A model generated the notes under the pieces. The model did not search any database. It saw only the letters and a program-made list of their open reading frames with translations, and was not told the origin of the DNA. From the NCBI GenBank assembly GCA_041662765.1, contig JBAZRT010000001.1:1-47364 (forward strand): DNA of 47,364 nucleotides. The letters are read 5' to 3'. Made by a program: the position numbers and the translations under genes. Shown here in pieces: positions 11,200 through 31,436 of the stretch. Position 1 is the stretch's first letter; each line of letters begins with the position of its first letter. The DNA comes from Parcubacteria group bacterium. Lineage in GTDB: Bacteria; Patescibacteriota; Minisyncoccia; Moranbacterales; UBA11712.

Positions 11200-11236
11200 A
11201 ACAACCCCATTCAGCTTTCAGCGGGTTGTTTTTTGT
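11200..11236 (+). terminator. Rho-independent terminator
   Basis: AACAACCC (11200-11207) pairs with GGGTTGTT (11223-11230) and is followed by a T-run. Confidence 0.6.
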
Positions 11237-11304
11237 TTGCTGTTTATTAGTCTAAGTGCTAAAGTTATCTTCAAAGAGGTCTAATTATCAATAAAATAAA
11301 AAAA

Positions 11305-11997: not shown

Positions 11998-12503
11998 GAC
12001 AAAAATTTATTTTCATTTCCAATGGTTGACTGGAAATTATAATTGGATCAGGAAAGAATATATCTAAAAGGCGGAAAAAGAGATGCTATTTTTCTGGGAT
12101 GTATTCTGGGCGAAAAATTTGCCCAATTTGCAACTCTATGCCGGAGTTGTGCTGATCAGTTCTTTCTCAAAGATCATCGGAATCTCCCTTATTTTGATCA
12201 AAATTTTTGGCGCGTCAACCTAGGAGGATTGGCCAGCAAACATTTTATATCATCTCCGAAGGAGGTTCGCTATGGCAGGCAAGCAGTATGACGGCTTTAT
12301 TATTTTTTATTCATCGGCGGGTTGGCAACCATAGTTTGGCTTCCGGCAAAACAGGGCTGCAAAAAAGTGGCTGATTTTTTCCGGCAGCTTGCGGATGTGG
12401 CAATCAATCGGGCCATCTGGTCTTTGGTCGGCCGGAAGCTGATGTGAACGCGCTTTTTTTTCTGAAGTTGAAAGTCCCGAGTTCCAAGAAATTTGGGCGA
12501 GGC

Positions 12504-12538
12504 GAGGGGTGCAGAAGTCGTGCGCTCCTCTTTTTTTT
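12504..12538 (+). terminator. Rho-independent terminator closing a short non-annotated transcription unit
   Basis: GAGGGGTGC (12504-12512) pairs with GCGCTCCTC (12522-12530) over 9 bp, two of them G-U. TTTTTTTT follows. Confidence 0.6.
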
Positions 12539-12547
12539 GAAACAGCC

Positions 12548-12576
12548 TTGATCATTTTCGAAAAAGAAAGTAAGAT
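12548..12576 (+). promoter_or_regulatory. Sigma70-like promoter (TTGATC-N17-TAAGAT)
   Basis: The -35 lies at 12548-12553 and the -10 at 12571-12576, about 45 nt upstream of the 74-aa ORF. Confidence 0.45.
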
Positions 12577-12622
12577 GATATGAAACAAAAAATGCTGAAA
12601 AAGTAGGGAGGAAAAAACGGGG

Positions 12623-12847
12623 ATGTATATTTTGCCAGAGAGATATTCTTTCTGCAGGCAGTTCTTCAACCGCGGGCGCTGGCACATCAAGGACATACAG
12701 ACCAATGGAAGCGGTCTCTCGGTGCTTCCACTGTGCAGCGTCTCGGGAAAATTCCAATTCAATAAGTCCGAAATCGCTTTGGCGAGGCAGATTTGCCCGG
12801 TGTGTCTCAAAATTGCGAAAGAATCGGGAATCATTCCTCAAAGCTGA
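12623..12847 (+). CDS. Small Cys-containing hypothetical protein (74 aa)
   Basis: The ORF has the SD GGGAGG 9-10 nt upstream of the ATG, its own promoter and a strong terminator. It contains C11, C38 and CPVC (58-61). Confidence 0.5.
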   Translation: MYILPERYSFCRQFFNRGRWHIKDIQTNGSGLSVLPLCSVSGKFQFNKSEIALARQICPVCLKIAKESGIIPQS

Positions 12848-12867
12848 AAACAAAATTCGGGGGAGGC

Positions 12868-12904
12868 AAAGGGCGCGATCAACATCGGTTGCGCCCTTTT
12901 TTAT
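12868..12904 (+). terminator. Rho-independent terminator
   Basis: AAAGGGCGC...GCGCCCTTTTTTATTT: the stem GGGCGC/GCGCCC is extended by G-U/A-U pairs and followed by a T-run. Confidence 0.7.
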
Positions 12905-12931
12905 TTCTCCAGAAAACAGGAATTTGCCAAA

Positions 12932-12966
12932 TAAAAAAGCCGGGGTTTCCTCGCGAAAACCCCGGC
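12932..12966 (-). terminator. Rho-independent terminator (minus strand), convergent with the previous one
   Basis: GCCGGGGTTT (12939-12948) pairs with AAACCCCGGC (12957-12966). The - strand reads the hairpin followed by TTTTTTAT. Confidence 0.7.
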
Positions 12967-13011
12967 GTACCATCTCTTTCCCTGGAGGGGGATCCAGAGG
13001 AGAGAAAATCA

Positions 13012-13173
13012 TCATTTCGGCTGGGCAGCTTTTTCAGCTGCTTGAAGGAGCAGTTGATACTCGAAATTATCCATGTTCCGCTCACTCATTTGAGCCATGG
13101 TCACGAGGGAGTATATGACCAAACCCAGAAGACCGCCCAGGATGATCCCCGGAAAGATTAATGCCGTTGGCAT
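13012..13173 (-). CDS. Small membrane protein (53 aa), below the ORF-track cutoff
   Basis: The ORF reads MPTALIFPGIILGGLLGLVIYSLVTMAQMSERNMDNFEYQLLLQAAEKAAQPK. An AGGAGA SD lies 7 nt upstream of the ATG (cat at 13171-13173). The stop tca is at 13012-13014 and a terminator lies downstream. Confidence 0.45.
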   Translation of the reverse strand: MPTALIFPGIILGGLLGLVIYSLVTMAQMSERNMDNFEYQLLLQAAEKAAQPK

Positions 13174-13557
13174 GCTCGCTCTCCTAAAAATAAAATAACT
13201 GCATTTCTATTGGCGCTATTATATCACAGAGATAAGTCATTGTCAAATTGACGGCCGGAAATTCTTCGCATTTTTTCACAATTCGGAATTTAGCCAATAT
13301 GAACCAGGAAGGGTATGATGAGGCTAGTCGTCTAAATAATAAAAAACATCAACAGTTCTGCTTCCAGCGGGGCTGTTTTTTTGATTTGCGAATATTGGAG
13401 CGGATTTCAGATTTGTCAAAATTGCATAATGGCTTATATAAGGCAAAATAATTGTTTTTTCGCTTTTTTTACTTGACTTATTTAAAAAGGAGTGTTACAA
13501 AAATACGAAGTCCTTTGACAACTTCATGTTATAAATTCCCATAAGGATGGTGCAAAT

Positions 13558-14649
13558 ATGCGTCTATCACGGCTTTTGGATTGGAGGTGGTGGTTCGGCC
13601 TCAGGCCGAAATTTGCCATCGAACCGCCGGTCGCGAAGTATTCAATTACTATTGTCGTGCCGGCCTACAACGAAGAAGATTCAATAGGCGCCACCATCAG
13701 CAACCTGAAATTGCAGACGGTTCCGATTGAGGAAATCATCGTGGTTGATGATTGCTCCTCGGATGGAACCGGCGAAATTTCCAGGGAAATGGGCGTCACC
13801 GTTATCCGGACTCACAAAAATCAGGGATCAAAGGCGATGGCCCAGAATTATGTCATTCCGCAAATCGTGTCCGATCTTATCGTGACAATTGATGCGGATA
13901 CGATTCTGGCGCCGGATGCCATTGAGAAAACATTGCCCTGGTTCAACAGCCCGAAGACGGCTTCCGTATGCGGGTTTGTTATTCCGCAAAAAGTGGAAAC
14001 CCTTTGGGAAAGAGGGAGGTTTATCGAATACGTATTTGGCATATCGCTCCATAAGAGAGCCCAGCAGAATATAGGGCTGGTTATGGTTTCCTCCGGCTGT
14101 TTTTCCGTCTTTCGCACGGAACTGCTCAAGATGATGGGCGGTTTCGACGCGAGGACAATGGCCGAGGATATGGATCTCACTTGGAATTTCCTGCTCGAGG
14201 GATATGAGATCTATTGCGAGCAGACGGCCTATTGCTATCCGTTCGATCCACCGACGCTCAAAATATTCGTCAACCAGATCGACCGATGGTACCGGAGCTT
14301 TTTCCAGAACGTTTCCGTTCACAGCTTCAGAAAAAACAAGGGGCTGGGAATCATGATCTATGGATACCTCCTGGAACCGGCACTGGCACCGATTCTTGCC
14401 GTTGCGTTTCTCACGACGATGAAGTGGAATTTCTGGTGGCTAATCATGCTGGCCGCCGCTATCGATCTGACGATCGTGGCGATCCCGTGCCTCATCAAAG
14501 GCGCGGTTACCGGCATGACTGGAAAAGTTTTGACCTCCTTGCCGGCTTATTGGGTCATAAGATTTGTTAATATCTATGTCTTTTGGCGGTCCTTCTGGAG
14601 AGAGTGGATCATCAAAGACAAACTCAACAGCTGGAACAAGGGTCACTGA
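13558..14649 (+). CDS. Processive family-2 glycosyltransferase (PgaC/IcaA/NodC/cellulose-synthase-like synthase)
   Basis: Motifs seen are VVPAYNEE, VVDDCSSDGT, TIDADT (DxD), TMAEDMDL (ED) and VNQIDRWYRSF (QxxRW). C-terminal TM helices are present. The gene is GC-rich relative to its flanks. Confidence 0.85.
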   Translation: MRLSRLLDWRWWFGLRPKFAIEPPVAKYSITIVVPAYNEEDSIGATISNLKLQTVPIEEIIVVDDCSSDGTGEISREMGVTVIRTHKNQGSKAMAQNYVIPQIVSDLIVTIDADTILAPDAIEKTLPWFNSPKTASVCGFVIPQKVETLWERGRFIEYVFGISLHKRAQQNIGLVMVSSGCFSVFRTELLKMMGGFDARTMAEDMDLTWNFLLEGYEIYCEQTAYCYPFDPPTLKIFVNQIDRWYRSFFQNVSVHSFRKNKGLGIMIYGYLLEPALAPILAVAFLTTMKWNFWWLIMLAAAIDLTIVAIPCLIKGAVTGMTGKVLTSLPAYWVIRFVNIYVFWRSFWREWIIKDKLNSWNKGH

Positions 14650-14683
14650 AGTCTCAACCGCGAAATCAAAGAAGGAAAAAGTT

Positions 14684-15793
14684 ATGAGAAAGTGGATGTT
14701 GGTTTTGGCTTTGGCGGCCGCGTTGATGATTCCATCCGCGGCCATGAGCGCTCCGGCTCCGAAGGAAATTATCTTGGGAAAATCGAAGATCATTGTGCCG
14801 CCAGGCGCTTTGGTCGGCGCTCAGGTTGACCGGGTCACCCGCGATACCACTCTGCCTGATGGCAGTGATCTCAAGAACGCCTATCCCTTCCGGGTTGTCA
14901 CCGACAAGTCCGGGCTGGTTACCTACATGGAAGGCCGCCTGGCCGGCCAGCTGATTGATTACGCCAAAGTCCAGGTCGTAGGCCTGGGACCGGCGTATGC
15001 CAAATTAGTGGGCGAAACGGGCGACTTCTACACTGAAGACGGCGCCGGGAATTTCAAGTTCAGAGTGGATCCGTCCAAACTGAACTATTCCTCGGTGCTG
15101 TATGCCGACAAGCGGTCTTTTGCCGTGATGATCGACACCCACGGTTTCAACGCTGTGGCCGCACCGGCAATTCACCTGGCTCAATTGTCCAAGAAGAAAC
15201 TCAGCCTGGTGATTGCCTGCATGGACCTGCCTTCGAAAGCTGAAGCGGCCCTGTTTCTGGCCCAAAACGGCATCAACTGCTACGGGCCCTGCGACCTTTT
15301 CGGATCCCAGATCGTCGGCTACAAGAAAGACAATCCCAATGCCGCGACAGTCCTGGGGACCGCCCCTATCCGCAAGCTCAAAAAGGGCGGAGCGGTGATT
15401 GGGAATCAGTCGGTGCGTATCGCGCTGGCTGAAGAGATCGTGGTCCAAAAGACCGACAATGCCAAATATCCGGACCAGTACTGCGACGCGCCCTACAACT
15501 ATTTTCGTGCCGTGCAGGAAAAGCTGGGACTGGCCTTGAAGCTCACTCCCGTTGTGGCCACCATCGGCCAGACGGATAAGTTGGTCGCCAAAGCCAAAGA
15601 AGTCGGCGCCCAGGTGATTGGAGTGAGAGTCCTGAACGAAAAGGACGCGGCTCCGATCGCGGCGTGGCTCAAAGAAAACCCCAAAAATCGGGCCATTCTT
15701 TTTCACTCGGCTGCTTATGAGCCGGGCTATGACCTGTTTTTCCAATTCCCGAAGCAGACCAGCTTTGGGGACCTCAATCCACAAGTTCTGTAG
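14684..15793 (+). CDS. Secreted/periplasmic hypothetical protein (369 aa)
   Basis: The ATG at 14684 is preceded by GAAGGAAAAAG. The signal peptide is MRKWMLVLALAAALMIPSAAMSA. No recognisable motif was seen, and codon usage matches the island. Confidence 0.65.
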   Translation: MRKWMLVLALAAALMIPSAAMSAPAPKEIILGKSKIIVPPGALVGAQVDRVTRDTTLPDGSDLKNAYPFRVVTDKSGLVTYMEGRLAGQLIDYAKVQVVGLGPAYAKLVGETGDFYTEDGAGNFKFRVDPSKLNYSSVLYADKRSFAVMIDTHGFNAVAAPAIHLAQLSKKKLSLVIACMDLPSKAEAALFLAQNGINCYGPCDLFGSQIVGYKKDNPNAATVLGTAPIRKLKKGGAVIGNQSVRIALAEEIVVQKTDNAKYPDQYCDAPYNYFRAVQEKLGLALKLTPVVATIGQTDKLVAKAKEVGAQVIGVRVLNEKDAAPIAAWLKENPKNRAILFHSAAYEPGYDLFFQFPKQTSFGDLNPQVL

Positions 15794-15809
15794 TCAGAGG
15801 GGGTAAACG

Positions 15810-16295
15810 ATGAAGAAGGCAAGAAAGTGGCAATTTGTTGCGTTGGCGTTTGCGGTCATGTTCTTTCTGGCCGGCAGTGTTGCCATCGCAGGGGAAACTT
15901 ATCCCCAATTTCCCTGGTCCACCTGGGGCGAGGTATCCCAAACCATCGCGGGCAAGGATAATCCCGGGTTCAAAGCGGATGGGTATCTCGAGCAAGGTAT
16001 CGATTGGACGAAGTTCGGCAGCAGCTCGAAGTTCAGTCCGGTCCTCAATACCTTCGTGGGTTTCCGCTTCACCGCCAGCAATCACCCTGAGTACTGGTGG
16101 GACAACAAGCTCGGGCCTTGGTTTGGCGCCAAGCTGAAGTGGGATGTAAACCCCTATCCCGGAGCCTGGGGCCAGATCGCCCTCGGCATTCGCGGCGAGT
16201 ACTATACGTATTTCAGTACCGTCCGCGATCGGCCCTACAGCAACGACCTTCGCTGTGTCGCCTTTCTCCAATGGTCTTTTGGCGGCAAGTGGTAG
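15810..16295 (+). CDS. Small outer-membrane beta-barrel-like protein (161 aa)
   Basis: It has a signal peptide (..FFLAGSVAIAG). Amphipathic strands alternate along the sequence (FVGFRFTAS, WFGAKLKWDV, IALGIRGEYYTYF, RCVAFLQWSF). The C-terminus FGGKW is aromatic, as in OMP beta-signals. Confidence 0.55.
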   Translation: MKKARKWQFVALAFAVMFFLAGSVAIAGETYPQFPWSTWGEVSQTIAGKDNPGFKADGYLEQGIDWTKFGSSSKFSPVLNTFVGFRFTASNHPEYWWDNKLGPWFGAKLKWDVNPYPGAWGQIALGIRGEYYTYFSTVRDRPYSNDLRCVAFLQWSFGGKW

Positions 16296-16310
16296 GCGGG
16301 GGAGGCAGGC

Positions 16311-16910
16311 ATGTACAAGGGTAAAAGCGGATTATGCGGAACGGTAGCGCACGTGCTCCTCGCCTGTCCCATCCTGGCGGTGGTTCTGGGCGTGGGAGGT
16401 GCGGCACTTTACGTGAAATCTTATATCCGCGGGCAGCCTCCTCCTTATACGGTGGAGGTAACCGCCCAAAAGATCATGGCAGATCCTGCTTTCCAGGCCA
16501 AAGTTCGGGAGACTGAAAAAGTTCCCGGAGCCAGGGAGCTGACTGATGAGGCCGAAAAGGTCTTTCAGGGGATCGTTATGGTCGAAAGCGGAGACAAGGA
16601 GATCGGCGTCCATCCAGACGGCGTATCCCACGGTCCGGCGGGTCTCACCCTGCCGGCTCTCAAAGACGTGCATCGGCTGGTCTGCAATTCGAGCGAAAAG
16701 CTCGATTATCAGGCCATCCTGAAAAATCCGGTGGAGAGCAGGAAGTTTGCCAAGCTCTACTATCTGGAAATGGTGCACCGCTTTGGGGACGTGAAAACCG
16801 CGGCCATTGCCTATCACCACGGACCCACCCGGGTCTCGCGGTGGATAAGGCAGCACAAGTCTCTGCCGGATAGCTACTGGAACAAAGTCCAGGAGGCGAT
16901 GGGCGACTAA
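16311..16910 (+). CDS. Membrane-anchored SLT-domain lytic transglycosylase
   Basis: An N-terminal TM segment is followed by MVESGDKE (catalytic E-S), HGPAGLT and AIAYHHGP (AYNxGP-like). The SD is GGGGGAGG. Confidence 0.7.
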   Translation: MYKGKSGLCGTVAHVLLACPILAVVLGVGGAALYVKSYIRGQPPPYTVEVTAQKIMADPAFQAKVRETEKVPGARELTDEAEKVFQGIVMVESGDKEIGVHPDGVSHGPAGLTLPALKDVHRLVCNSSEKLDYQAILKNPVESRKFAKLYYLEMVHRFGDVKTAAIAYHHGPTRVSRWIRQHKSLPDSYWNKVQEAMGD

Positions 16911-16954
16911 CGGCCGTCCAAGAAAAGAGGAGGGAAAAGAAGCAAAGAAGTTCT

Positions 16955-16987
16955 GGCGGCATCACGCAATTCGATGCCGCCTTTTTT
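16955..16987 (+). terminator. Rho-independent terminator
   Basis: GGCGGCATC (16955-16963) pairs with GATGCCGCC (16973-16981) and is followed by TTTTTT. Confidence 0.8.
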
Positions 16988-17007
16988 AAACTTAAAAAAA
17001 CGCACAC

Positions 17008-17036
17008 TTGACAAATTGAAGACAATATATTACGAT
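17008..17036 (+). promoter_or_regulatory. Sigma70-like promoter (TTGACA-N17-TACGAT)
   Basis: The -35 lies at 17008-17013 and the -10 at 17031-17036, upstream of the BamD-like gene. Confidence 0.55.
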
Positions 17037-17115
17037 TAGCTGTTCGTTGAAATCGGCACAACGCTTAGAAATGGCAATTTTGCCAATAACGTTGAAAGAA
17101 TAGGAGATATTGCTC

Positions 17116-17742
17116 ATGACTAAGGTGGGGAAAATCAGGTTTTTGGCCGTGGTCTTTGCTCTGCTTCTTTGCTGGGGCTGTGGCGGGATGAGTTTCAGCT
17201 CCAAGCCGGAAGCGTCCAGCACTGAAGTCTTTGGTCCGATGCCAGCGGAACAGCTTCTCAAGATGGCCGAGGACCGCTTCAAGGCTGGCGACTATTTGGC
17301 CGCCATGCGCGCCTATGACGCGTTCGAAAAGGATCATCCCGGGAGCCAGCTCATGCCATTTTGCGTTTTCGGCCGTGGTCTCAGCTATATGCACGAAATG
17401 GAGACCATCGACCGCGACCAAGCCATGTGCCGCAAAGCCGCTGAGCAGTTTCAGCGGGTCGTGGACCGGTATCCGGATTGGAAGTACACGGCTGATGCGA
17501 AAGCGCATCTCAAAAAGTGCCGTGGCAACCTGGCGGAACACGAATTTTATGTGGGCTCCTATTATCAGCGGACCGGGCGCTATCGGGCCGCATTGGTTCG
17601 CTACCAGGGACTTGCCCGGGATTATCCGGAGTTCACCAAAGGAGCCGAAGTCAAAAAAGGCATCGCGGAATGCGAAGCCGAACTGGCCAAGGCGCCAAAG
17701 CCAAAGGGATTGATCGCCCAGCTCTTCGATGCCCAGTGGTAA
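17116..17742 (+). CDS. BamD/YfiO-like TPR outer-membrane lipoprotein (208 aa)
   Basis: The AGGAGA SD precedes the ATG at 17116. A lipobox-like LLLCWGC-GG is present. TPR-like repeats include AEDRFKAGDYLAAMRAYDAFEKDHPGS, AAEQFQRVVDRYPDWKY..DAKAHL and EHEFYVGSYYQRTGRYRAALVRYQGLARDYPEF, a typical BamD signature. Confidence 0.75.
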   Translation: MTKVGKIRFLAVVFALLLCWGCGGMSFSSKPEASSTEVFGPMPAEQLLKMAEDRFKAGDYLAAMRAYDAFEKDHPGSQLMPFCVFGRGLSYMHEMETIDRDQAMCRKAAEQFQRVVDRYPDWKYTADAKAHLKKCRGNLAEHEFYVGSYYQRTGRYRAALVRYQGLARDYPEFTKGAEVKKGIAECEAELAKAPKPKGLIAQLFDAQW

Positions 17743-17771
17743 AAGACAAGAAGTTCTTTTTGAGCAAAACC

Positions 17772-17807
17772 GAACCCCGATGCCGAGCATGGGGGTTCTT
17801 TATTTTT
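17772..17807 (+). terminator. Rho-independent terminator
   Basis: GAACCCC (17772-17778) pairs with GGGGTTC (17792-17798). An inner ATGC/GCAT helix is present, and CTTTATTTTT follows. Confidence 0.7.
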
Positions 17808-17882
17808 CCTGCTTTTTTTGGCGGGTTGTTTTTTTGGTTGATTTTTGATAGAATATTTCAAGTCGAAGCAATATTACAACAA

Positions 17883-18153
17883 GCCGTTGTAGCTCAGCTG
17901 GCAGAGCAACTCCATGGTAGGCAACTGCCCATAGGCGGAGAAATCCGTCAATGAATCCCGAATCACGGTTAAAGGCCCTAGCCGGGTCAAGACCGTAGCG
18001 CTTTCTTGGCGCTCGAACGACTGACAAGGGGAGCTAAATTTGTCAATTGGCAAATATGTTCAAGATACAGTCTAATCCTCTTATATGGTTGAATAACAAA
18101 AAAAGAGGTATAAATGAAGGAGTAGGTCCGCGGTCCGAATCCGCGCAACGGCT
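17883..18153 (+). tRNA. tRNA-Thr(GGU) interrupted in the anticodon loop by a 198-nt intron
   Basis: The 5' exon is GCCGTTG-TA-GCTC-AGCTGGCA-GAGC-A-ACTCC-ATGGT (17883-17918). The 3' exon is AA-GGAGT-AGGTC-CGCGG-TCCGAAT-CCGCG-CAACGGC-T (18117-18153). Acceptor, D, anticodon and T stems all pair. The spliced loop is AUGGUAA. Confidence 0.75.
17919..18116 (+). ncRNA. Group I-like self-splicing intron (no ORF)
   Basis: The 5' exon ends in U and the intron ends in G. The helices found are:
- P2: GGCGGA-GAAA-TCCGTC (17934-17949)
- P3: TCCC (17956-59) with GGGG (18028-31)
- P4: ACGGT (17965-69) with ACCGT (17992-96)
- P5: GGCCC/GGGTC
- P6: AGCGC/GCGCT (17997-18013)
- P7: GACTG (18019-23) with CAGTC (18068-72)
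- P8: ATTTGTC-AATT-GGCAAAT (18038-55)
- P9: CCTCTT/AAGAGG (18077-18108)
The order P3-P4-P5-P4'-P6-P7-P3'-P8-P7'-P9 is the group I topology. Confidence 0.6.
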
Positions 18154-18180
18154 CAAGGATAATTTTTTATTCGCAAAAAC

Positions 18181-19068
18181 ATGTCCGGAAAAAAAATATC
18201 GATATTCCTCGCTGTGCTGATCGTTATCATTGTCGGATTTTTGTGGTATCAAAAAGGGAAGGGCAAAAAAAATCAAAATACCCAGTCATCCGCGAAGCTG
18301 TCGTCTCTCAAGAATTCTCCCGCAGGGGACAACAGCGCGGCTGACGCGAATTCCGATCAGGCTATGGAGGATTTCGACGCGCAGTGCACGAACGGCCAAT
18401 GGGTGAAGATCGCCGATGTGGAAGGGGAAATGACAACTGCCAAAGGAGTGGTGCAAGCGGTCGATCCGGAAAATACCGCTACTGCGGCTTTCCAAAGTTA
18501 TCGAAATTATCTCGACGGAAGCGAGAAAATCGCGCTTGTTGATCCAAATGTGAAGACAGATACTGATGATAGCGATGTGGATCTTTTCCAGACCAGGGAA
18601 GTGGAAGTTCAGGGAGTGCTCGGCCAAGGCGCGGCAAAAGAAGCGAAAGTTTCCCAGATCAGATGCGCGGGCAAAGAAACGGACAAAAACGCGGCGGACG
18701 ATCGCACCAAAATTTTGAACTATATTTCGGCGAACATAAGCTCGATTGCTCCGGAAAAAGCTCCGCAGAAAAATTGGGTAGCTTCCTCGGTGGTCATTTT
18801 GGATGAAAAGGATGTTTATGTCGATTATTATGACGCTATCGAAGACGATGAAAACAGTGATCCGGAACTGGATACAACGCACAGGGTTCTGCTGGAGATC
18901 GCTCCCGGAGGGAATGGCAATTTCAATGCAAATGTGCTAGCCTATTGGGTCCCGGGTGAAGAAGATTTTGTGCTCAAGCAAGGGAATGACAAATTCAAAA
19001 ATCTCGATGAATTTTCTCTGCCGTCGTATTCCTATGATTCCGAGAGCAATTCATGGTCGAGAGACTAA
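18181..19068 (+). CDS. Membrane-anchored hypothetical protein (295 aa)
   Basis: It has an N-terminal TM segment (ISIFLAVLIVIIVGFLW) and an acidic extracytoplasmic region. No recognisable domain was seen. Confidence 0.55.
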   Translation: MSGKKISIFLAVLIVIIVGFLWYQKGKGKKNQNTQSSAKLSSLKNSPAGDNSAADANSDQAMEDFDAQCTNGQWVKIADVEGEMTTAKGVVQAVDPENTATAAFQSYRNYLDGSEKIALVDPNVKTDTDDSDVDLFQTREVEVQGVLGQGAAKEAKVSQIRCAGKETDKNAADDRTKILNYISANISSIAPEKAPQKNWVASSVVILDEKDVYVDYYDAIEDDENSDPELDTTHRVLLEIAPGGNGNFNANVLAYWVPGEEDFVLKQGNDKFKNLDEFSLPSYSYDSESNSWSRD

Positions 19069-19103
19069 GCCAAAAATTCTAAATTAATTTAATCCGAAAT
19101 ATT

Positions 19104-19259
19104 ATGTCGCAAGAAAATCTCGTCAAATTCAAATGTGAAGTTTGCAAATCTGTGAATTATCATTCCACCCGCAACAAAAAGAAGATCAAAGAAAAGATCG
19201 CTCTCAAGAAATTTTGCAAGAAATGCCGCAAACACACGCCGCACAAGGAATCGAAATAG
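19104..19259 (+). CDS. rpmG: 50S ribosomal protein L33 (51 aa), below the ORF-track cutoff
   Basis: MSQENLVKFKCEVCKSVNYHSTRNKKKIKEKIALKKFCKKCRKHTPHKESK shows the L33 pattern CxxC..NY...KN....L.LKK.C..C.KHT.H.E.K. Confidence 0.85.
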   Translation: MSQENLVKFKCEVCKSVNYHSTRNKKKIKEKIALKKFCKKCRKHTPHKESK

Positions 19260-19291
19260 CAGTCAATATCTGTATTTTGCCTGAATAATAT

Positions 19292-19365
19292 GCGGGCATA
19301 GTTAAGTGGTATAACAGTGGTCTCCAAAACCACAGTCGGGAGTCCGATTCTCTCTGCCCGTGCCA
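19292..19365 (+). tRNA. tRNA-Trp(CCA) with encoded CCA
   Basis: The cloverleaf is GCGGGCA-TA-GTTA-AGTGGTA-TAAC-A-GTGGT-CTCCAAA-ACCAC-AGTC-GGGAG-TCCGATT-CTCTC-TGCCCGT-G-CCA. It aligns closely with E. coli tRNA-Trp. Confidence 0.9.
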
Positions 19366-19376
19366 AGATCAAAAAA

Positions 19377-20156: not shown

Positions 20157-20171
20157 ATTATTCAACTCTTC

Positions 20172-21485: not shown

Positions 21486-21502
21486 TTAAAAATCCAAATT
21501 CA

Positions 21503-22228
21503 ATGTTGATTTCCGTCCGTAATCTTTGCAAGGAATACGACAACGAAGGTGTTCTCACAAAAGCCCTCTGCGGGGTTTCTTTTGATATTGACAAGGGTGA
21601 ATTTGTGGCCATCATGGGTCCGAGCGGCAGCGGAAAATCAACACTGATGCAACTTTTGGGATTTCTGGACCGAGCCACCGCCGGGAAATATTTTTTTGAG
21701 GGACGCGACACAAAAAATTTTTCCGACGATGAGCTGGCATATTTTCGCAATCAAAAGATCGGCTTTGTTTTCCAATCTTTCAATCTTTTGCCCAGAACAA
21801 CTGTTTTTGAAAATGTGGAACTTCCGCTTTTATACGATGAACGGAAGGAATCGCAAAGCCTCATAAGGCAAAAAGTCGAGCAGGCGCTGAAAGCGGTGAA
21901 TCTCGAAAGCAGAATAGGCAATTTTTCCAATCAGCTTTCGGGCGGAGAACAGCAAAGAGTGGCGATTGCGAGGGCGCTTGTCAATGATCCGGCGCTTATT
22001 CTTGCTGACGAGCCAACGGGAAATCTTGATTCGAAAAACGGACTGCAAATAATGAAAATACTTCAAAAATTGAATGATGAGGGGCACACGATCGTGATGG
22101 TGACGCACGAAACCTATACATCCGAACACGCAAAAAGAATTATTGAAATGCTTGACGGAAATATTGTGAGAGACAGGCTTGTGGCAAAAAGAAGAATTGC
22201 GGACGGAGAAGAAAAGCTTTTGAAATAA
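21503..22228 (+). CDS. ABC transporter ATP-binding protein (MacB/LolD family)
   Basis: It has Walker [10 protein letters not shown], the Q-loop, the signature [15 protein letters not shown], Walker B LILADEPT and the H-loop VTHE. Confidence 0.9.
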
Positions 22229-22232
22229 TGTC

Positions 22233-23477: not shown

Positions 23478-23482
23478 AGAAT

Positions 23483-24778: not shown

Positions 24779-24792
24779 GCTTTCGCATCAAA

Positions 24793-24815
24793 CAAAAAAA
24801 CAGCCCTAAAGGCTG
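24793..24815 (-). terminator. Weak minus-strand hairpin with a T-run
   Basis: CAGCC (24801-05) pairs with GGCTG (24811-15). The - strand reads the hairpin followed by TTTTTTTG. The stem is only 5 bp. Confidence 0.35.
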
Positions 24816-25145
24816 ACTTGTGAAACAATATTTTGTGAAACATTTTGTACTTTTGAAATAATTCCAAAGAAAAACCACCTCTCGCTCGTTGACATCAAAT
24901 CTCTTCGGTATCTCGGTTTGTTTGGAGTTTCTTCCATTTCGCATCTCGCTAACTGTCCCTCCCTCTTCAAGAAACAATCAACGTGACACAACTTTACTTT
25001 TAAGATCCCCCAAGAGGTGGCCACTTTAGTGGTGTAGCCATAGTTTTGTTTCGATTTTTAAGGTTTTTAGTTCCCTTCTCTGACTATATGTACGCAGGCT
25101 GGCTTCTTTGCTTTCATTTTTTGCCAAATTGAGTTCAGCGCCTCC

Positions 25146-25174
25146 TTGACAAGGATATTGTTTTTTGCTATGTT
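25146..25174 (+). promoter_or_regulatory. Sigma70-like promoter (TTGACA-N17-TATGTT)
   Basis: The -35 lies at 25146-25151 and the -10 at 25169-25174, upstream of the DUF4012 gene. Confidence 0.55.
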
Positions 25175-25245
25175 TAAACATTGAAAAAATTGAAAAAAAG
25201 CGTATTATCATATGTCTGGTAAAATAATGCTTATATAAAACATTT

Positions 25246-26649: not shown

Positions 26650-26666
26650 GGCCTGCTTTTTTAAGC

Positions 26667-26695
26667 TTGACAATCTTATCGGAATAATGTATACT
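26667..26695 (+). promoter_or_regulatory. Sigma70-like promoter (TTGACA-N17-TATACT)
   Basis: The -35 lies at 26667-26672 and the -10 at 26690-26695. Confidence 0.6.
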
Positions 26696-26725
26696 GATCT
26701 GTTGACTTAATAAATAAGCATTGTT

Positions 26726-27412
26726 ATGAACTATTCTCAATTTAAAGTCATTTTATCAAGAAAAATAGGCCTTATGATACTGATCGGGCTTCTTTTTGCG
26801 GCTATTTCATTTTGGGGGATAATGCTTCTTTCACCGAGATATCAGTCCAATTTTGATGTTCTTGTTGTTCAAAATCAAGAGGGTTTTGTCGATTCCTACA
26901 CGCTTGCCAAGTCTACGGAATATTTTTCGAAGCTGCTTTCAGAAAGCGTCTATACGGAAACTTTTCTCAATAAAGTCATAGAAAGCGATCCGGAACTTTC
27001 GAGAATATTGCCTGTTGGAAGAGAAGATCGCATGAAAGCTTGGGGAAAAATGGTTCAAACCTCGATCAATGTTGAGCTGGGAATGATCCATCTCAAGACT
27101 TTGGCGGATGACAAGACTCATGCTGAAATATTGTCGAAAACGATTGCAAATGTTCTCGCGGAAAACAACAATTTGTTCATCAGCGAAAACCAAAAAATCG
27201 AAGTGCGCATGATAAACGCGCCGCTGGTCAAGAGCAATCCGGGAACAAATACGCTGATTTTCACTGTCGTGGCGTCTTTTCTCATTGGAATGCTGCTTGT
27301 GTTCATGATCTCATTTTACAAAAATCTCATCAACCAAAAGAACTCAAAAGACGAATTTGAAAATATGATCGAGAGTGATGAGAATGGGGTTGAAAGTCTT
27401 TGGGAAGCATAA
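26726..27412 (+). CDS. Wzz/polysaccharide co-polymerase-like chain-length determinant (228 aa)
   Basis: It has the bitopic PCP topology: an N-terminal TM segment (IGLMILIGLLFAAISFWGIMLL), a helical loop and a C-terminal TM segment (LIFTVVASFLIGMLLVFMISFY). Confidence 0.55.
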   Translation: MNYSQFKVILSRKIGLMILIGLLFAAISFWGIMLLSPRYQSNFDVLVVQNQEGFVDSYTLAKSTEYFSKLLSESVYTETFLNKVIESDPELSRILPVGREDRMKAWGKMVQTSINVELGMIHLKTLADDKTHAEILSKTIANVLAENNNLFISENQKIEVRMINAPLVKSNPGTNTLIFTVVASFLIGMLLVFMISFYKNLINQKNSKDEFENMIESDENGVESLWEA

Positions 27413-27504
27413 GACATAAACTTCTTCCCGCCGAATATTTCGGGGGTTGAATCTCCCAAAAGCGTTTTTTGGAATATTCAACCCTTGAAAACGAGGGTAG
27501 CTCG

Positions 27505-27534
27505 TTGACAACTTATAATATTAATAAGTAAAAA
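27505..27534 (+). promoter_or_regulatory. Sigma70-like promoter (TTGACA-N18-TAAAAT)
   Basis: The -35 lies at 27505-27510 and the -10 at 27529-27534. It would give a leader of about 220 nt ahead of the 760-aa gene. Confidence 0.4.
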
Positions 27535-27609
27535 TATGCGACTCCGCCTGGGCGGAGTCAAAAACAAAAAATTTCATGCAACTCCGGTTTTTTCCGAAAG
27601 CATATACCG

Positions 27610-27690
27610 CAGATAATCCAGTGTTTTCTCATCTGGCTGCGAGAGCAAAATTTTGCTATTCAGATAATCCAGTGTTTTCTCATCTGGCTG
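27610..27690 (+). repeat. Two perfect 30-nt direct repeats separated by a 21-nt spacer containing a 14-nt palindrome
   Basis: cagataatccagtgttttctcatctggctg occurs at 27610-27639 and at 27661-27690. The spacer cgagAGCAAAATTTTGCTatt contains the palindrome. Each repeat carries CCAG..CTGG. Confidence 0.85.
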
Positions 27691-27758
27691 AAAAGAAACT
27701 ACACGCTCTTTGTTTTGCTTAGGATAAACGAAGGAGAAGCGAGAAGAGGGGTTCGACC

Positions 27759-30041
27759 ATGGTCAAAAATCTGTTAGCCACTGTGCTGCTCGGCCTTTCG
27801 CTGTTTTTCTGCAGCGGCCAGGCTCAAAGCGCAGACCCGATTCCCGGAGATTCCGGTGAGAAGGGTTGGTATAGGTGCTCCGGCGGCGGAGGAGAGGCTT
27901 CGACAGCCGCTTCCGCCGAAAAGTCTGATCCTGGTGTGGTCCGCGAGTGGAAAGATGCCCGCGACGGCCAAATTTATCAGGAAAGACTGAACCAGGAGAG
28001 CGGGCAGTTTTACACGGTCCGCAAACCCAACAAATGGGAAAGCGCTAAGAACGAAGATAGCGACAACCCGCGCAGGTACATCCAGCCTAACACCGACCAG
28101 CCCAAGCGAGTCATCTCGAGTCGCGCTCCCAAAAAGGGTGAAACCTGGACGGTGGGTGTGGTCAGAATGCCCAAGGCCATGCCAATTGCGGCCGGCAAAG
28201 GTCTCTTCTGGGGCGTTGGCCTCAACAAGGCCGAAAACAAGCTGGTTAAGGTGTCTTTGCTTCCGTTGGAAATGAAAGCGGATGACAAGAGCGACACCCG
28301 TCCGGCTGTTTTCATCGCCGAGGGCCAGCTGCCTGAGAACGCTCCGATCATTTGGGGCGACCGCTATCCCGAAAAAAGATGGTGGAAACGCATGGGCGAT
28401 GCCTATGGCGAAACCGTCATCTGGAACCGGGACGGGCAGCATTTCAAGCTGCTCAACGGGTTTTTTGATGAGCCGGAACGACTTGCCAAGTTTGTCGATG
28501 TTTACGGCGGCAAGATTCCGACGTCTAAGGCTCACATGGTCCAAGTGCCGGCCAACGAGGTTTTTCAACAGGCCAAGAAGCTTGGGTACAAAAACCTGAG
28601 CAATGGGGATATGTTGATGCCCGGCGCGGATCTCTATGATCTGCGCGAGCGGCATAGCCAGATTCCGGCGATCTACTTTTACCAGCGTCTCATGAAAACG
28701 GGATTCCCTACTTTCACGGTCCCGTTTGCCGCCGCCTCGTTTGGCATCGGCTCTGGAATACAGGTTGCCTCGGCATTGCTCGATACTCGGCAGTTCGATA
28801 TCGAGTGCCTCTCAAACCAAAAAGGCATGGAAGCCTTCGAGAGGATGCAGAGCAATCTGAAGAGCTCGTCTGCTCTGGCAAGTGTGACTCCGAGATATTC
28901 CGCCAAAGCGGGGATTTCGAGAGTTGCGAATGCACCTCCAGTCGATGACTGCGGGCGCATTCTGAGCCAGCTGACGGCTGGTGCATACCCAATGGGTTAT
29001 GCGGCCGACGAACTGCGGGAAATGCGGTGGCTTTATGACCGCGAGATCCGCAATGAAATGTTCGCCGGCGGCGGTTGGTCTAGTAGCAACGTGCCTCCTG
29101 GTACTGTTGCGACCAACAGTCGCGCAGCCAATTTCCATTGGCGTCCCTTCGGCGTCTATGATGCCGATAGTGGGTTCTGGTTTGGACCCACGTATGAGTA
29201 CGGCAACTGGGACTGGCATTATCGGTCCCGGGGATGGAACGGCGATGGTGAAGGCAGGCGCTGGGCTGCAGGGCTCTCATCTGTCTATACCACCAAAACG
29301 TCCTGGGGCGGGATAAAGTGGTATAACAAAGCCCTGTTTGCCCGCTTCTCTGACGGCCAGATCCATCGGGCGGAAGGCATCTTCGGCACCTATGTCGATG
29401 CCTGGCACAAGCCGCTCTGGCAAAACAAGAGTGAAAGCGTCCAACTCTTCTCCGGCTTTAGTGGAGGAGTAGAAGTGAATACCGGATCCGGATTGCTGGC
29501 GGACTTGAGTCCGACGGTATTGCGCATCAGGGTCTGCGGGGCGGACGCGCTTCGCATAGATCCGGGCATCCGGTTCCTCATGCCCTGGCCTGCAAAAACG
29601 AACTTGCTGGGCTGGGGCGTCAAAGTGATGGCGCTCGACGGAGGGATAGGCTGGTACGCCAATTTCTTCCCGGGCCACCTGAACTTCAAAACCTTCGGCG
29701 GATCTCTGCCGAGGCTGATCAACTTTGCGCGGCGCATTCAGGCCTGCGGAATCAAGGAAATACCGTTCCCGCCGGCCGATATTTGTCCGCCCACCCCGGT
29801 TGTAAAGGTGCCAGAAGCGCCTTGTCCGCCGAAAATCGTGCCGCCGCCTCCTCCGGCCCTCGAAACGCCGCCGGTGAAAATAAAGAAAAAGCGGCCGAGC
29901 AAGAAGAAGCTGCGCCTCCGGTGTCCGGTAGAAAAGCCGGAAATGCCGATCCAGGTGCCGCCTTTGCCTAAGCTGCAAAGCAAACTGTCGCTCCCTGATG
30001 GCCATCAGGCGAGCCGGCAAGTACCACCCAAGGTAATGTGA
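27759..30041 (+). CDS. Large secreted hypothetical protein (760 aa) with a W/G/Y-rich C-proximal region and a proline-rich basic tail
   Basis: The signal peptide is MVKNLLATVLLGLSLFFCSGQAQSA. The W/G/Y-rich stretch reads FHWRPFGVYDADSGFWFGPTYEYGNWDWHYRSRGWNGDG..GGIKWYN. The tail reads PPADICPPTPVVKVPEAPCPPKIVPPPPPALETPPVKIKKKRPSKKK. Composition is GC-rich. Confidence 0.65.
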   Translation: MVKNLLATVLLGLSLFFCSGQAQSADPIPGDSGEKGWYRCSGGGGEASTAASAEKSDPGVVREWKDARDGQIYQERLNQESGQFYTVRKPNKWESAKNEDSDNPRRYIQPNTDQPKRVISSRAPKKGETWTVGVVRMPKAMPIAAGKGLFWGVGLNKAENKLVKVSLLPLEMKADDKSDTRPAVFIAEGQLPENAPIIWGDRYPEKRWWKRMGDAYGETVIWNRDGQHFKLLNGFFDEPERLAKFVDVYGGKIPTSKAHMVQVPANEVFQQAKKLGYKNLSNGDMLMPGADLYDLRERHSQIPAIYFYQRLMKTGFPTFTVPFAAASFGIGSGIQVASALLDTRQFDIECLSNQKGMEAFERMQSNLKSSSALASVTPRYSAKAGISRVANAPPVDDCGRILSQLTAGAYPMGYAADELREMRWLYDREIRNEMFAGGGWSSSNVPPGTVATNSRAANFHWRPFGVYDADSGFWFGPTYEYGNWDWHYRSRGWNGDGEGRRWAAGLSSVYTTKTSWGGIKWYNKALFARFSDGQIHRAEGIFGTYVDAWHKPLWQNKSESVQLFSGFSGGVEVNTGSGLLADLSPTVLRIRVCGADALRIDPGIRFLMPWPAKTNLLGWGVKVMALDGGIGWYANFFPGHLNFKTFGGSLPRLINFARRIQACGIKEIPFPPADICPPTPVVKVPEAPCPPKIVPPPPPALETPPVKIKKKRPSKKKLRLRCPVEKPEMPIQVPPLPKLQSKLSLPDGHQASRQVPPKVM

Positions 30042-30194
30042 AAACCGAGTCTCGGCCGGAGCTTATCCCACAGCATGGGAAAGTAACCGGCCGTACCCGC
30101 GGTATAAATTGTTATAAGGAGAAGAATCACAAAATAAGGCAAAAACAACTAGACCCGCGATTTGTTCGCGGAGATCATCCAAGAGGAGAGGATT

Positions 30195-30584
30195 ATGAAG
30201 GCAATGACGAAGGCGTTGGTTCTGTTTTGTGCGCTGTCTCTCTGCTTTGTCGGCGTGGTCAGCGCCAAGGTTTTGGATGCCGGTGTGTTTCCCACGGCCG
30301 ATGCCCAGGGGAACGTGACCATCCCGCAACTGCCCAATGGCAAGATCCTCCAGATTTACGTCTGGAACGATAGCCAAGGCGCCGCGGAAAAGAAATTGGG
30401 CGCCACGCACAGCTTCAAGCTGAATCCCGGTGACGGTTTCAATTTCACCTGGAGCGGCCCCCAAGGCGTAGCCTGGCAGCTGGTGACCAGAGGTAGTCAG
30501 GTCGGTGGAAGCCTGGTCGTGGACGATTCCTGGAAGGACGCCAACGGCAAAGTCGGGTGCAAGTACCTTTTCCCGGGCAAATAG
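30195..30584 (+). CDS. Small secreted hypothetical protein (129 aa)
   Basis: The ATG at 30195 is preceded by GAGGAGAGG. The signal peptide is MKAMTKALVLFCALSLCFVGVVSA. The mature part is beta-rich. Confidence 0.6.
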   Translation: MKAMTKALVLFCALSLCFVGVVSAKVLDAGVFPTADAQGNVTIPQLPNGKILQIYVWNDSQGAAEKKLGATHSFKLNPGDGFNFTWSGPQGVAWQLVTRGSQVGGSLVVDDSWKDANGKVGCKYLFPGK

Positions 30585-30656
30585 ATCTCGGCCGGACCCC
30601 GGCCACACACCGCCCTCATAAGGAGGTAACAAAGGGAGCAAAGAAGTAGAAGTATT

Positions 30657-30718
30657 GAGCCGTATCAGAATGCTGTCCGCCATCGCGTGGACATGCTACT
30701 GATACGGCTCTTAATTTT
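30657..30718 (+). terminator. Long-stem rho-independent terminator
   Basis: GAGCCGTATCAG (30657-30668) pairs with CTGATACGGCTC (30699-30710) and is followed by TTAATTTT. Confidence 0.7.
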
Positions 30719-30759
30719 GGAAAAAATTAAAACGGCAAGCTGAAATCATGCTTGCCGTT
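30719..30759 (-). terminator. Rho-independent terminator (minus strand)
   Basis: AACGGCAAGC (30731-40) pairs with GCTTGCCGTT (30750-59). The - strand reads the hairpin followed by TTAATTTTTT. Confidence 0.7.
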
Positions 30760-31228
30760 AGTCTTGAGAGCGATCGCCATAAACAACAACCTTTGTTGCC
30801 TTTTCTTCCGCCCAGTCGAACAGTCGCTTGGCGTCTTTTTTCTCTCCCGCATGCACGCATCCGCGAGTGGCTTTCTGGCGGGTAACGTCTTTTTTCAGCG
30901 GAACAACTCCGGCGTGGATGGCCATTCGGGTGCGCTCATTCCAGATGAAAAACAGCGAAAAGGGCATCCAGGTGCTGTATTGGTTTGACCAATATTTTGG
31001 GTCTTTGCGCTCTACCCGATAGATTCCCTGCGGAGTTTTGAATTTTGCGTCCCCGGTGATAGCGGGGAAACGAAGTTGTTCTTTGCCATCCAGATAAGCG
31101 ATGATTTCCTGGCGATATTGATCCACAAAAATGACCTTCCCTCTCCAAAATTCTTCCGATGTCTCCGCGTGGAGAGCGGAAGCAGTGAAAAGAACGAAGA
31201 AGCAAATTATAAGATGAATTTTTTTCAT
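30758..31228 (-). CDS. L,D-transpeptidase (YkuD) domain protein (156 aa)
   Basis: It has the signal peptide MKKIHLIICFFVLFTASALHA. The YkuD active-site pattern HxG...(S/T)xGC(V/I)(H/R) is present as IHAGVVPL...ATRGCVH. Confidence 0.75.
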   Translation of the reverse strand: MKKIHLIICFFVLFTASALHAETSEEFWRGKVIFVDQYRQEIIAYLDGKEQLRFPAITGDAKFKTPQGIYRVERKDPKYWSNQYSTWMPFSLFFIWNERTRMAIHAGVVPLKKDVTRQKATRGCVHAGEKKDAKRLFDWAEEKATKVVVYGDRSQD

Positions 31229-31407
31229 CTCCCATCCTCCTTTTTGGCCTCAATGTCCCAGTATAGCTGTATATACAGGAAAAGCAAGTTTCCAAAAAGG
31301 GATCGAAATAAAACCTCAAATATACGTTTTTGAGCAACTCTATCGCCGTGTTCAGGAAAATACCAGCTAAATAGGAAAATAATGCTTTATATAAGCCGTA
31401 ATAACAC

Positions 31408-31436
31408 TTGACAAAGTTATTGCAAAATGATATTAT
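31408..31436 (+). promoter_or_regulatory. Sigma70-like promoter (TTGACA-N17-TATTAT)
   Basis: The -35 lies at 31408-31413 and the -10 at 31431-31436. Confidence 0.6.

Follow-up and report, generated by a model that had tools for sequence, protein, structure and literature searches.

A stretch of 47,364 nucleotides from the genome of a Parcubacteria group bacterium (contig JBAZRT010000001.1 of assembly GCA_041662765.1), here called the window, contains two blocks of genes that differ in base composition from their surroundings, the backbone. The first block, island 1 (13558-17742), encodes a processive family-2 glycosyltransferase (GT2), a secreted protein of 369 residues (sec369), a small beta-rich protein (omp161), an SLT-like glycosidase and a BamD-like lipoprotein. 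The second block, island 2 (27759-30584), encodes two secreted proteins, the larger of which (big760) has 760 residues. It is probable that these are two old, vertically inherited and compositionally distinct blocks in a genome of the Candidate Phyla Radiation (CPR), that all their products are envelope proteins and that island 1 is an exopolysaccharide operon derived from diderm bacteria. An initial annotation of the window had described both blocks as islands encoding diderm envelope proteins. This stands firmly for one gene and plausibly for island 1, but not at all for island 2.

The GC content is 0.540 in island 1, 0.567 in island 2 and 0.444 in the remaining window. In 1-kb sliding windows, plateaus of 0.50-0.59 were observed at about 13.5-18 kb and 27.5-31 kb over a background of 0.39-0.48, and three hand counts per 60 nucleotides given in the initial annotation (31/60, 34/60 and 24/60) were exact. 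At the level of single genes, the GC content of the third codon position (GC3) was 0.64-0.75 for the seven island genes versus 0.35-0.58 for 32 backbone genes. The base frequencies at this position were nearly alike in both islands (A.13, C.35, G.32, T.20) and were A.24, C.24, G.25 and T.27 in the backbone. The codon preferences that had been described for the islands hold as well, with values for GCC of 0.48 and 0.49 in the two islands versus 0.27, for CTG of 0.39 and 0.43 versus 0.20, and for AAA of 0.43 and 0.40 versus 0.71.

The sliding tetranucleotide comparison that had been proposed as a check gave the same picture. The 2-kb windows of the islands were located at a distance of 0.035-0.045 from the backbone, whereas backbone windows were at 0.018 ± 0.0034, which places the islands 5-8 standard deviations outside the backbone variation. 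The distance between the two islands was 0.0177, compared to 0.019 ± 0.004 for random backbone pairs. Since this equals the noise between pieces of backbone, the two islands share one signature. The islands of other lineages were found at 0.013-0.018 from the islands of the window and at 0.033-0.040 from the backbones, and the shared signature persisted even where the proteins were barely alignable (32-35% identity). The range of 12300-31300 originally assigned to the islands was too wide. Island 1 begins at about 13.5 kb and not at 12.3 kb, the region of 17.8-27.7 kb is ordinary backbone and the YkuD gene (30758-31228) also has backbone composition.

A sharp change of composition at intergenic regions in a metagenome-assembled genome (MAG) might also result from a chimeric contig, in which the assembly fused GC-richer pieces of a diderm genome with a CPR backbone. 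Four false joins would be required for this. However, four further assemblies from different samples contain island 2 with its two junctions, and in each of them it lies between the Wzz-like and the YkuD/Wzy genes. These assemblies are L061 (ENA, 254 kb), L062 (JGI/NCBI Parcubacteria, 291 kb), L072 (Logan) and JGI 3300075153 (35 kb). The gene order DUF4012 - Wzz-like - big - small - YkuD (minus strand) - Wzy - GT4 - TIG - GT4 is kept, and the block is GC-rich against low-GC flanks in all four relatives. The right junction of island 1 is covered by a Logan contig from SRR18595301 (L001) that is 100% identical to window 16486-18038, and the same junction is kept together with a tRNA-Thr gene in the lineage of L004 and L005. 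A JGI contig (L035) shows 99-100% identity over three genes of the cassette, and in L002/L003 the cassette also lies in low-GC flanks. The chimeric contig is already refuted at three of the four junctions and we give it practically no chance. The islands had been called real insertions rather than a chimeric join, and this is borne out by their recurrence in independent assemblies of related genomes. Both are genuine parts of a CPR genome and no misassembly. The proteins of the window are annotated at NCBI in the MAG 'Parcubacteria group bacterium', which is related to Moranbacteria and belongs to the CPR, and a close relative of big760 was deposited under Candidatus Moraniibacteriota. From these deposits, the CPR assignment holds.

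The five-gene cassette of island 1 was found in the same order in L002/L003, L004/L005 and L007, with 57-82% protein identity. Wherever the flanks are visible, the GC content of the cassette is 0.52-0.56 versus 0.34-0.45 in the flanks. The cassette orthologs gave dN values of 0.13-0.31 and dS values of at least 1 (1-2), and the closest pair, the BamD-like gene of the window and that of L006, showed a dN/dS of 0.08. As dN/dS is well below 1 and dS is high, the genes are functional and old. The divergence of island 2 was analysed at four-fold degenerate sites in all six pairs of the window, L072, L061 and L062. In every pair, the distance of big760 equalled that of the flanking DUF4012 and Wzz genes. 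Examples are 0.38 for big760 versus 0.38 and 0.53 for the flanks, and 1.19 versus 1.23 and 0.82, with a span from 0.38 to about 1.2. We conclude from the equal four-fold divergence that the common ancestor already had island 2 and passed it on vertically. Recurrent import from one donor pool was considered for island 2 and rejected on the same distances.

Horizontal gene transfer and genomic islands have been reported to be frequent in Patescibacteria (PMC12455944), and the kind of feature described here is to that extent already known. An atypical composition would be expected from mobile islands that were inserted recently through site-specific recombination, at tRNA genes for instance, and are not yet ameliorated. 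Island 1 abuts the tRNA-Thr gene in the window and in L004, and in L002, where the context differs, the cassette is located 1.4 kb downstream of a tRNA-Arg gene. However, the tRNA-Thr gene lies downstream of island 1 with its 5' end facing the island and not in the arrangement of an insertion at a tRNA 3' end. No integrase, transposase or recombinase domain and no flanking direct repeat was detected, as had been reported before, and repeat matches were at chance level only. The cassette copies have accumulated their high synonymous divergence and yet kept both the gene order and the adjacency to tRNA-Thr, and the flank-like divergence of island 2 in every genome pair shows that it was not re-imported. 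A recent insertion is therefore not supported, and we regard it as very unlikely. The description of the islands as domesticated is justified, since dN/dS is well below 1, the genes are kept in several lineages, they have their own promoters and terminators and there are no mobility genes.

The islands resemble those reported in Patescibacteria (PMC12455944) in being atypical blocks in a streamlined CPR genome with their nearest outside relatives in diderm phyla. They differ in the lack of mobility genes, in predating the divergence of several lineages, in the flank-like synonymous rate and in the one signature that is common to two unlinked islands and to different lineages. A phage or prophage origin was also considered. 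Three scans of viral contigs with sec369, big760 and omp161 profiles were empty, and PHROGs gave only a weak endolysin-like match for the SLT-like protein and one match of unannotated function for the BamD-like protein. A defence system was rejected as well, as PADLOC gave no matches.

The first gene of island 1 (13558-14649, plus strand, GC3 0.64) encodes the membrane-embedded processive GT2 of 363 residues. It was matched by Pfam Glycos_transf_2 with an E-value of 1e-29, by Glyco_trans_2_3 with 3e-20 and also by Chitin_synth_2. The translation contains the motifs DDCSSD, DADT, AEDMD and QIDRW and has C-terminal transmembrane segments at 265-320. Motifs of the DxD, ED and QxxRW type together with hydrophobic segments characterise the processive, self-translocating synthases of the cellulose, chitin, hyaluronan and PNAG group. 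The top NCBIfam match was PgaC_IcaA with an E-value of 2.9e-37, although the score of 128.6 bits with TIGR03937 remained under the cut-off of 422.3. In the PDB, the minimal cellulose-synthase-like GT2 6yv7 and BcsA were matched. The GT2 is 81% identical to its counterparts in L002 and L007 and 57-66% identical to those in Nitrospirota and Bdellovibrionales loci.

The second gene (14684-15793, plus strand, GC3 0.70) encodes sec369, a secreted protein with a type-I signal peptide and zero matches in Pfam, NCBIfam and the PDB. An exhaustive search gave a family of 152 representative clusters at 50% identity. Elsewhere, the sec369 domain is fused to a CE4 deacetylase (for example in P0034) or to TPR, archaeal S-layer, PMT_2 or YwiC domains, and a relative is present in Candidatus Altiarchaeales. 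In many metagenome contigs sec369 adjoins a related GT2. The sec369 gene is nearly always a few percent richer in GC than its own contig. A scan of GTDB with sec369 motifs confirmed no relative.

The third gene (15810-16295, plus strand) encodes omp161, a small beta-rich secreted protein of 161 residues ending in ...FGGKW, with a mature length of about 130 residues. An AF2 model built from 19 sequences reached a pLDDT of 82.5 and showed a signal helix followed by six long amphipathic strands. A Foldseek search of this single-chain model against the PDB gave nothing significant. The OmpA transmembrane domain was matched with TM scores of 0.42-0.48 at a probability of 0.44, OmpW with 0.38, and the matches to outer-membrane proteins had E-values above 1. 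The label OMP-like in the initial annotation is therefore tentative. In sister lineages, the homologs carry the lipobox LLAGC, whereas the copy in the window has LAGS. The fourth gene (16311-16910, plus strand) encodes a predicted membrane-anchored, glycan-cleaving enzyme of the lysozyme fold with 199 residues. It has an N-terminal hydrophobic anchor and matches Pfam SLT with an E-value of 1e-6 and 28.7 bits versus a cut-off of 21.3. In diderm loci this gene always follows the omp161 homolog.

The fifth gene (17116-17742, plus strand) encodes a TPR lipoprotein of 208 residues. Its assignment as BamD-like, already made in the initial annotation, was confirmed by a match to Pfam YfiO (PF13525) with an E-value of 2.4e-26 and 93.2 bits versus a cut-off of 25. 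The TIGR03302 subfamily was matched with 137 bits versus 81.4 and the E. coli BamD chains in the PDB with an E-value of 3e-13, whereas the E. coli-type equivalog NF008119 gave 54 bits at a cut-off of 363. No variation was seen in the lipobox cysteine at position 22 (…LLCWGC|GG), which every cassette copy shares with the canonical BamDs P0004 and P0005. Compared to canonical BamDs, a stretch of about 28 residues that makes up TPR1 is absent, and the HMM and PDB matches begin at profile position 37-61. The BamD-like gene is separated from the fourth gene by 205 nucleotides, and a promoter-like site is present at 17008-17036 within this gap. Among 5.8 billion proteins, about 4 close clusters were found. 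A separate TPR lipoprotein had been listed in addition to the BamD-like protein, but there is none; the two are the same protein. With BamD (YfiO) it shares the passed Pfam and TIGR03302 cut-offs, the lipobox cysteine, TPR2-5 and the RDQ and LAEHEF motifs. It differs in its length of 208 residues, the missing TPR1, a clade-specific LFDAxW end and its location in a polysaccharide operon, with no BamA gene in the window.

Outside the clade, omp161 homologs were found in Nitrospirota (Thermodesulfovibrionales and Nitrospiraceae) and in Bdellovibrionales, and a scan of GTDB with omp161 gave seven genomes, diderm ones among them. The diderm loci have the order omp161 - SLT - GT2, often with sec369 nearby. 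Here, the GC content of the module equals that of the surrounding genome, from 0.34 to 0.58, with no GC excess. The module is accompanied by genes for GH18 chitinases, a CE4 deacetylase, GerE regulators and PilZ proteins and by an OEP gene, and no BamD gene was found beside the diderm four-gene modules. GT2, sec369, omp161 and the SLT-like protein form a conserved polysaccharide unit of diderm bacteria. No description of this four-gene module was found in the searchable literature. Two Nitrospirota loci (L066, 6009-12554, and L068, 7089-13754), in which omp161-SLT-GT2 is flanked by GH18, CE4, GerE and OEP genes, look like an uncharacterised chitin-like exopolysaccharide locus of diderms.

A diderm origin of the core of island 1 is suggested because the module is compositionally foreign in the CPR clade and present in only a few lineages. 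A transfer from a diderm into an ancestor of the CPR clade, with a shortened BamD paralogue added, is the most parsimonious explanation. This agrees with the diderm ancestry proposed initially for island 1, as Thermodesulfovibrionales, Nitrospiraceae and Bdellovibrionales carry the core at the composition of their own genomes and the fifth gene passes the BamD thresholds. A donor search based on composition found no match among 72 loci outside the clade (0/72), the nearest being L031 at 0.023.

For the function of the cassette, we propose that the cellulose-synthase-like GT2 with its QxxRW motif would polymerise a GlcNAc-type sugar and thread the polymer through the cytoplasmic membrane. The GlcNAc-type polymer is suggested by the GH18 and CE4 neighbours of the module in diderms. 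On the outside of the membrane, sec369 and the membrane-anchored SLT-like glycosidase may process the polymer, and the BamD-like TPR lipoprotein together with the small beta-rich protein, which is lipidated in sister lineages, may serve in the wall zone as a scaffold or conduit. This last role is proposed by analogy with the TPR-plus-beta-barrel pairs AlgK/AlgE, PgaA, BcsC and PelB/C. In a monoderm cell, the BamD-like protein and the beta-rich protein would both be anchored at the cytoplasmic membrane, on its outer face. Long ago, an ancestor of this CPR subclade would have taken up the four-gene core from a diderm lineage. A BamD paralogue that had lost TPR1 would then have been added with its own promoter, and the whole cassette has since been maintained by purifying selection.

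The cassette was compared with the PgaABCD, BcsABZC, Alg8/44/K/E/L and Pel systems. It has in common with them a processive GT2 with the D, DxD, ED and QxxRW motifs, a glycan-cleaving enzyme, a TPR lipoprotein and a beta-rich secreted protein in one operon and, in the Nitrospirota relatives, CE4, GH18 and PilZ genes beside the module. However, the GT2 of the island is far under the equivalog cut-offs of PgaC, NodC and BcsA, and the window encodes no 16-18-strand porin, no PilZ protein and no c-di-GMP receptor. The beta-rich protein is small, with its six predicted strands on about 130 mature residues, and the TPR protein belongs to the BamD family and not to the AlgK, PgaA or BcsC type. Further differences are the extra sec369 domain and the CPR host. 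A likeness to systems of the NodC/NodB or chitin-synthase type is also apparent from the cellulose-synthase-like GT2, the CE4 and GH18 neighbours in the diderm versions and the presence of NodC among the NCBIfam matches. However, the NodC match of the GT2 reaches 57 bits versus a cut-off of 550, and the window has no CE4 or GH18 gene.

The products of the islands had been said to make sense only with an outer membrane. The cassette, however, reads as a synthase-dependent exopolysaccharide operon and could operate at the surface of a monoderm, with the lipoproteins anchored in the cytoplasmic membrane. CPR bacteria are usually regarded as single-membrane organisms in which the outer membrane has been lost. 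If these Parcubacteria had a real outer membrane or a layer resembling one, the BamD homolog and the beta-rich protein might work there. The BamD match above curated cut-offs with its conserved lipobox, the purifying selection on this gene and the long amphipathic strands and aromatic C-terminus of omp161 would all be in line with such a layer. However, no gene for BamA/Omp85, Lpt, Lol, Tol or a secretin was found in the 47-kb window and about 100 kb of related loci, and TPR1 is absent from the BamD homolog. The backbone has genes of the monoderm type, with TasA and SipW, a MacAB exporter of the YknX type that has no TolC partner, DUF4012 and a short AlaRS. We therefore think an outer membrane in this organism improbable and favour the exopolysaccharide system of a monoderm surface. 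No relevant publication on BamD, BamA or outer-membrane proteins of Patescibacteria or Moranbacteria came up in literature searches.

In the backbone, all the features that had been claimed for it were found, namely a CxxC-x17-CxxC protein, DUF4012, SipW/TasA-like proteins and the short AlaRS of 606 residues. The backbone also encodes MnmA, a treble-clef zinc-finger protein, a MacAB-type ABC exporter with a YknX-like adaptor, Wzz-like and Wzy proteins, several GT4 enzymes, RmlABCD and FtsA. The three camelysin/TasA-like (Peptidase_M73) proteins are clustered with the SipW-type signal peptidase at 5791-10088. The largest of them has 734 residues and contains lamin-tail and purple-acid-phosphatase-N domains in addition.

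Island 2 starts behind a conserved leader or promoter region of about 350 nucleotides (27413-27758, plus strand) that is 86% identical to that of L061. It contains a perfect direct repeat of 30 nucleotides, CAGATAATCCAGTGTTTTCTCATCTGGCTG, at 27610-27639 and 27661-27690, spaced by 51 nucleotides. The leader of L061 also has both copies, each with the same single-base difference. The conservation of the leader versus L061 exceeds that of synonymous sites and no Rfam match was found. The repeat is possibly an operator pair or part of a regulatory RNA.

The first gene of island 2 (27759-30041, plus strand, GC3 0.66) encodes big760, which carries a signal peptide and is secreted. Its C-terminal third is rich in beta structure and its tail in proline and lysine. 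Sequence and profile searches matched nothing in Pfam, NCBIfam or the PDB. The six homologs that were found all lie on Parcubacteria or Moraniibacteriota contigs, and an AF2 model from six sequences was unusable with a pLDDT of 35. The protein is syntenic in L061, L062, L072 and JGI 3300075153, and it is 32-35% identical to its L062 counterpart (10001-12568), whereas the flanking proteins are 65-80% identical. Such a fast protein divergence with no change in the synonymous rate is consistent with relaxed or diversifying selection on a surface protein. The second gene (30195-30584, plus strand, GC3 0.75) encodes a small secreted protein of 129 residues, counted from the ATG. A homolog is present in L072, and the slot varies between the lineages. 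No tblastn homolog was found in L061 and L062, where other small GC-rich secreted genes occupy the slot.

A hairpin with arms of 22 nucleotides (30657-30710) between the convergent hyp140 and YkuD genes marks where island 2 ends on the right and probably terminates transcription in both directions. The YkuD L,D-transpeptidase (30758-31228, minus strand) has a signal peptide, matches Pfam YkuD with an E-value of 3e-16 and lies outside the GC-rich block, with a GC content of 0.48 and a GC3 of 0.52. Its syntenic position is conserved, and the protein is 69-75% identical in L061 and L062. The two secreted proteins of island 2 are specific to the clade, evolve fast and are encoded within a Wzz/Wzy/GT4/Rml surface-polysaccharide locus. 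The diderm or outer-membrane function that had been assigned to this island was not detectable in the Pfam, NCBIfam and PDB searches.

The surroundings of the islands were analysed as well. On the right, island 1 is bordered by the tRNA-Thr(GGU) gene (17883-18154, plus strand), which was found with the intron option of ARAGORN and contains an intron of 198 nucleotides at position 36/37. The 5' exon ends with U and the intron with G, as in group I tRNA introns. The gene was missed by default ARAGORN and by Rfam, the intron has no Rfam family and the fold of the precursor gave a z of -4.5. From the numbering of the locus tags, the gene is apparently unannotated in the NCBI record. The 5' half of this tRNA follows the cassette in L004 and L005 too. 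In L004 (3607-4358, with an equivalent in L005), an AT-rich insertion of 750 bp lies between the cassette terminator and tRNA-Thr and contains an open reading frame (ORF) of 204 residues with a LAGLIDADG-like motif (…GLGIGLYWGEGTK…). Further downstream in the window, tRNA-Trp(CCA) (19292-19365) followed by hyp279 is conserved in L061 (226-299). Upstream of this tRNA in L061, an HTH_23 protein replaces hyp295, tRNA-Thr and island 1, so that the island-1 site may be empty or different there.

The junctions had been described as having host-style promoters and clean terminators. Good sites are indeed present at 31408-31436, 13246-13218 and 17808-17825, but their overall frequency is no higher than in shuffled sequence. 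At the gathering thresholds, Rfam detected tRNA-Trp only, and at E-values up to 1 nothing was found in 11990-13560, 17800-18250 and 27400-27770. The region upstream of island 1 (12000-13557) has backbone GC, with small ORFs only, some of them with CxxC pairs, and no convincing large gene. It contains strong hairpin terminators on both strands (12504-12530, 12868-12899 and 12966-12939). The site at 13246-13218 on the minus strand is a 12/12 sigma-70 promoter with a TG extension, ahead of an ORF for a membrane peptide of 53 residues (13173-13012). Further genes of note lie in the related genomes, at 5982-6677 (minus strand) and 21747-22100 (plus strand) in L062 and at 6491-6769 in L061. Extra small GC-rich genes were observed between MacB and DUF4012, with a GC content of 0.61 in L062 and 0.60 in L061, and the window has no counterpart to them. 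L062 additionally has a bAvd/23S_rRNA_IVP-type gene, a possible accessory of a diversity-generating retroelement.

How the composition of the islands has been kept is a separate question. At the synonymous divergence observed, amelioration predicts a decay of the GC excess. We polarised the synonymous changes in big760 and counted 56 strong-to-weak versus 45 weak-to-strong changes with one outgroup and 7 versus 11 with two agreeing outgroups; the flanks gave 46 versus 86 and 32 versus 44. With so few changes, and with a long outgroup branch that biases parsimony, the counts are suggestive only. Something besides incomplete amelioration may hold the GC content of the islands. The donor may have been very GC-rich with a slow decay since, or the composition may be held by selection or by GC-biased gene conversion at surface loci that recombine.

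Taken further, the GC excess might be a stable gene-specific equilibrium, maintained by codon or mRNA selection or by GC-biased gene conversion, and at least island 2 might be native. The excess has persisted over four-fold distances up to 1.2 on the same clock as the flanks, the polarised changes show no excess of strong-to-weak, the signature is common even to barely alignable proteins, island 2 has no homolog outside the clade and all the island products are surface proteins. However, the module has no GC excess in Nitrospirota and Bdellovibrionales, and GC-rich codons are therefore not demanded by it. Other secreted proteins, the TasA-like, LTD and hyp348 proteins of the backbone, are encoded at backbone GC. 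Since the module has native GC in diderms and these other secreted proteins are at backbone GC, the proteins do not impose the bias. A codon dialect of highly expressed genes is also contradicted by a ribosomal protein gene in a related contig with a GC3 of only 0.51, and the polarisation counts are too small and too biased at such a divergence to lend the equilibrium much weight. We consider a native equilibrium unlikely, though less so than a recent insertion.

Several points weigh against two old blocks with a diderm-derived operon. The GC excess has not clearly decayed, as no clear excess of strong-to-weak changes was seen. The independent backing of the left junction of island 1 extends only about 90 nucleotides upstream of the GT2 gene. 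The type of polymer is deduced from neighbouring genes in other genomes, and the Foldseek search of the PDB did not demonstrate a membrane barrel for omp161. No donor above 66% identity and no diderm locus with the signature of the islands was found, and the direction and source of the transfer are thus taken from distribution and composition. Island 2 has no homologs outside the clade, and a foreign origin and a single source for both blocks are suggested by the signature it shares with island 1. The absence of Bam, Lpt and Lol genes applies to the 47-kb window and to pieces of ±10 kb of the relatives. Taken together, the recurrence in independent assemblies, the synonymous divergence and the distribution of the module still lead us to favour old, vertically inherited blocks, with island 1 as a diderm-derived exopolysaccharide operon.

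In a more far-reaching version, a subclade of Parcubacteria would have long retained diderm-type envelope proteins, namely the BamD paralogue without TPR1, the small amphipathic beta protein and a GlcNAc-polymer synthase, along with a second block of fast-evolving surface proteins of the same GC-rich composition. These genes would build an outer layer or a structure for contact between symbiont and host, for example one that inserts into or docks on the outer membrane of a diderm host, and the GC dialect would be actively maintained. We see a slim chance for this. If true, a very small genome would contain two compartments of stable and different composition, and a BAM component would have been reused outside a classical outer membrane.

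The new points are the fixation in a CPR clade of a BamD-family gene and a polysaccharide module of diderms, the four-gene module as defined here and the stable signature that both blocks share. Two unlinked blocks keep a foreign-looking signature at a flank-like synonymous rate, and for this reason atypical GC in these genomes cannot be taken to mean recent transfer or contamination during the curation of MAGs. The four-gene module is common to Nitrospirota, Bdellovibrionales and the CPR clade. A BamD-family lipoprotein is under selection in several Parcubacteria lineages and is linked there to a polysaccharide export operon of probable diderm origin, which raises the question of what a BAM component does without the expected membrane for BAM substrates and bears on how CPR episymbionts build their surface and touch their hosts.

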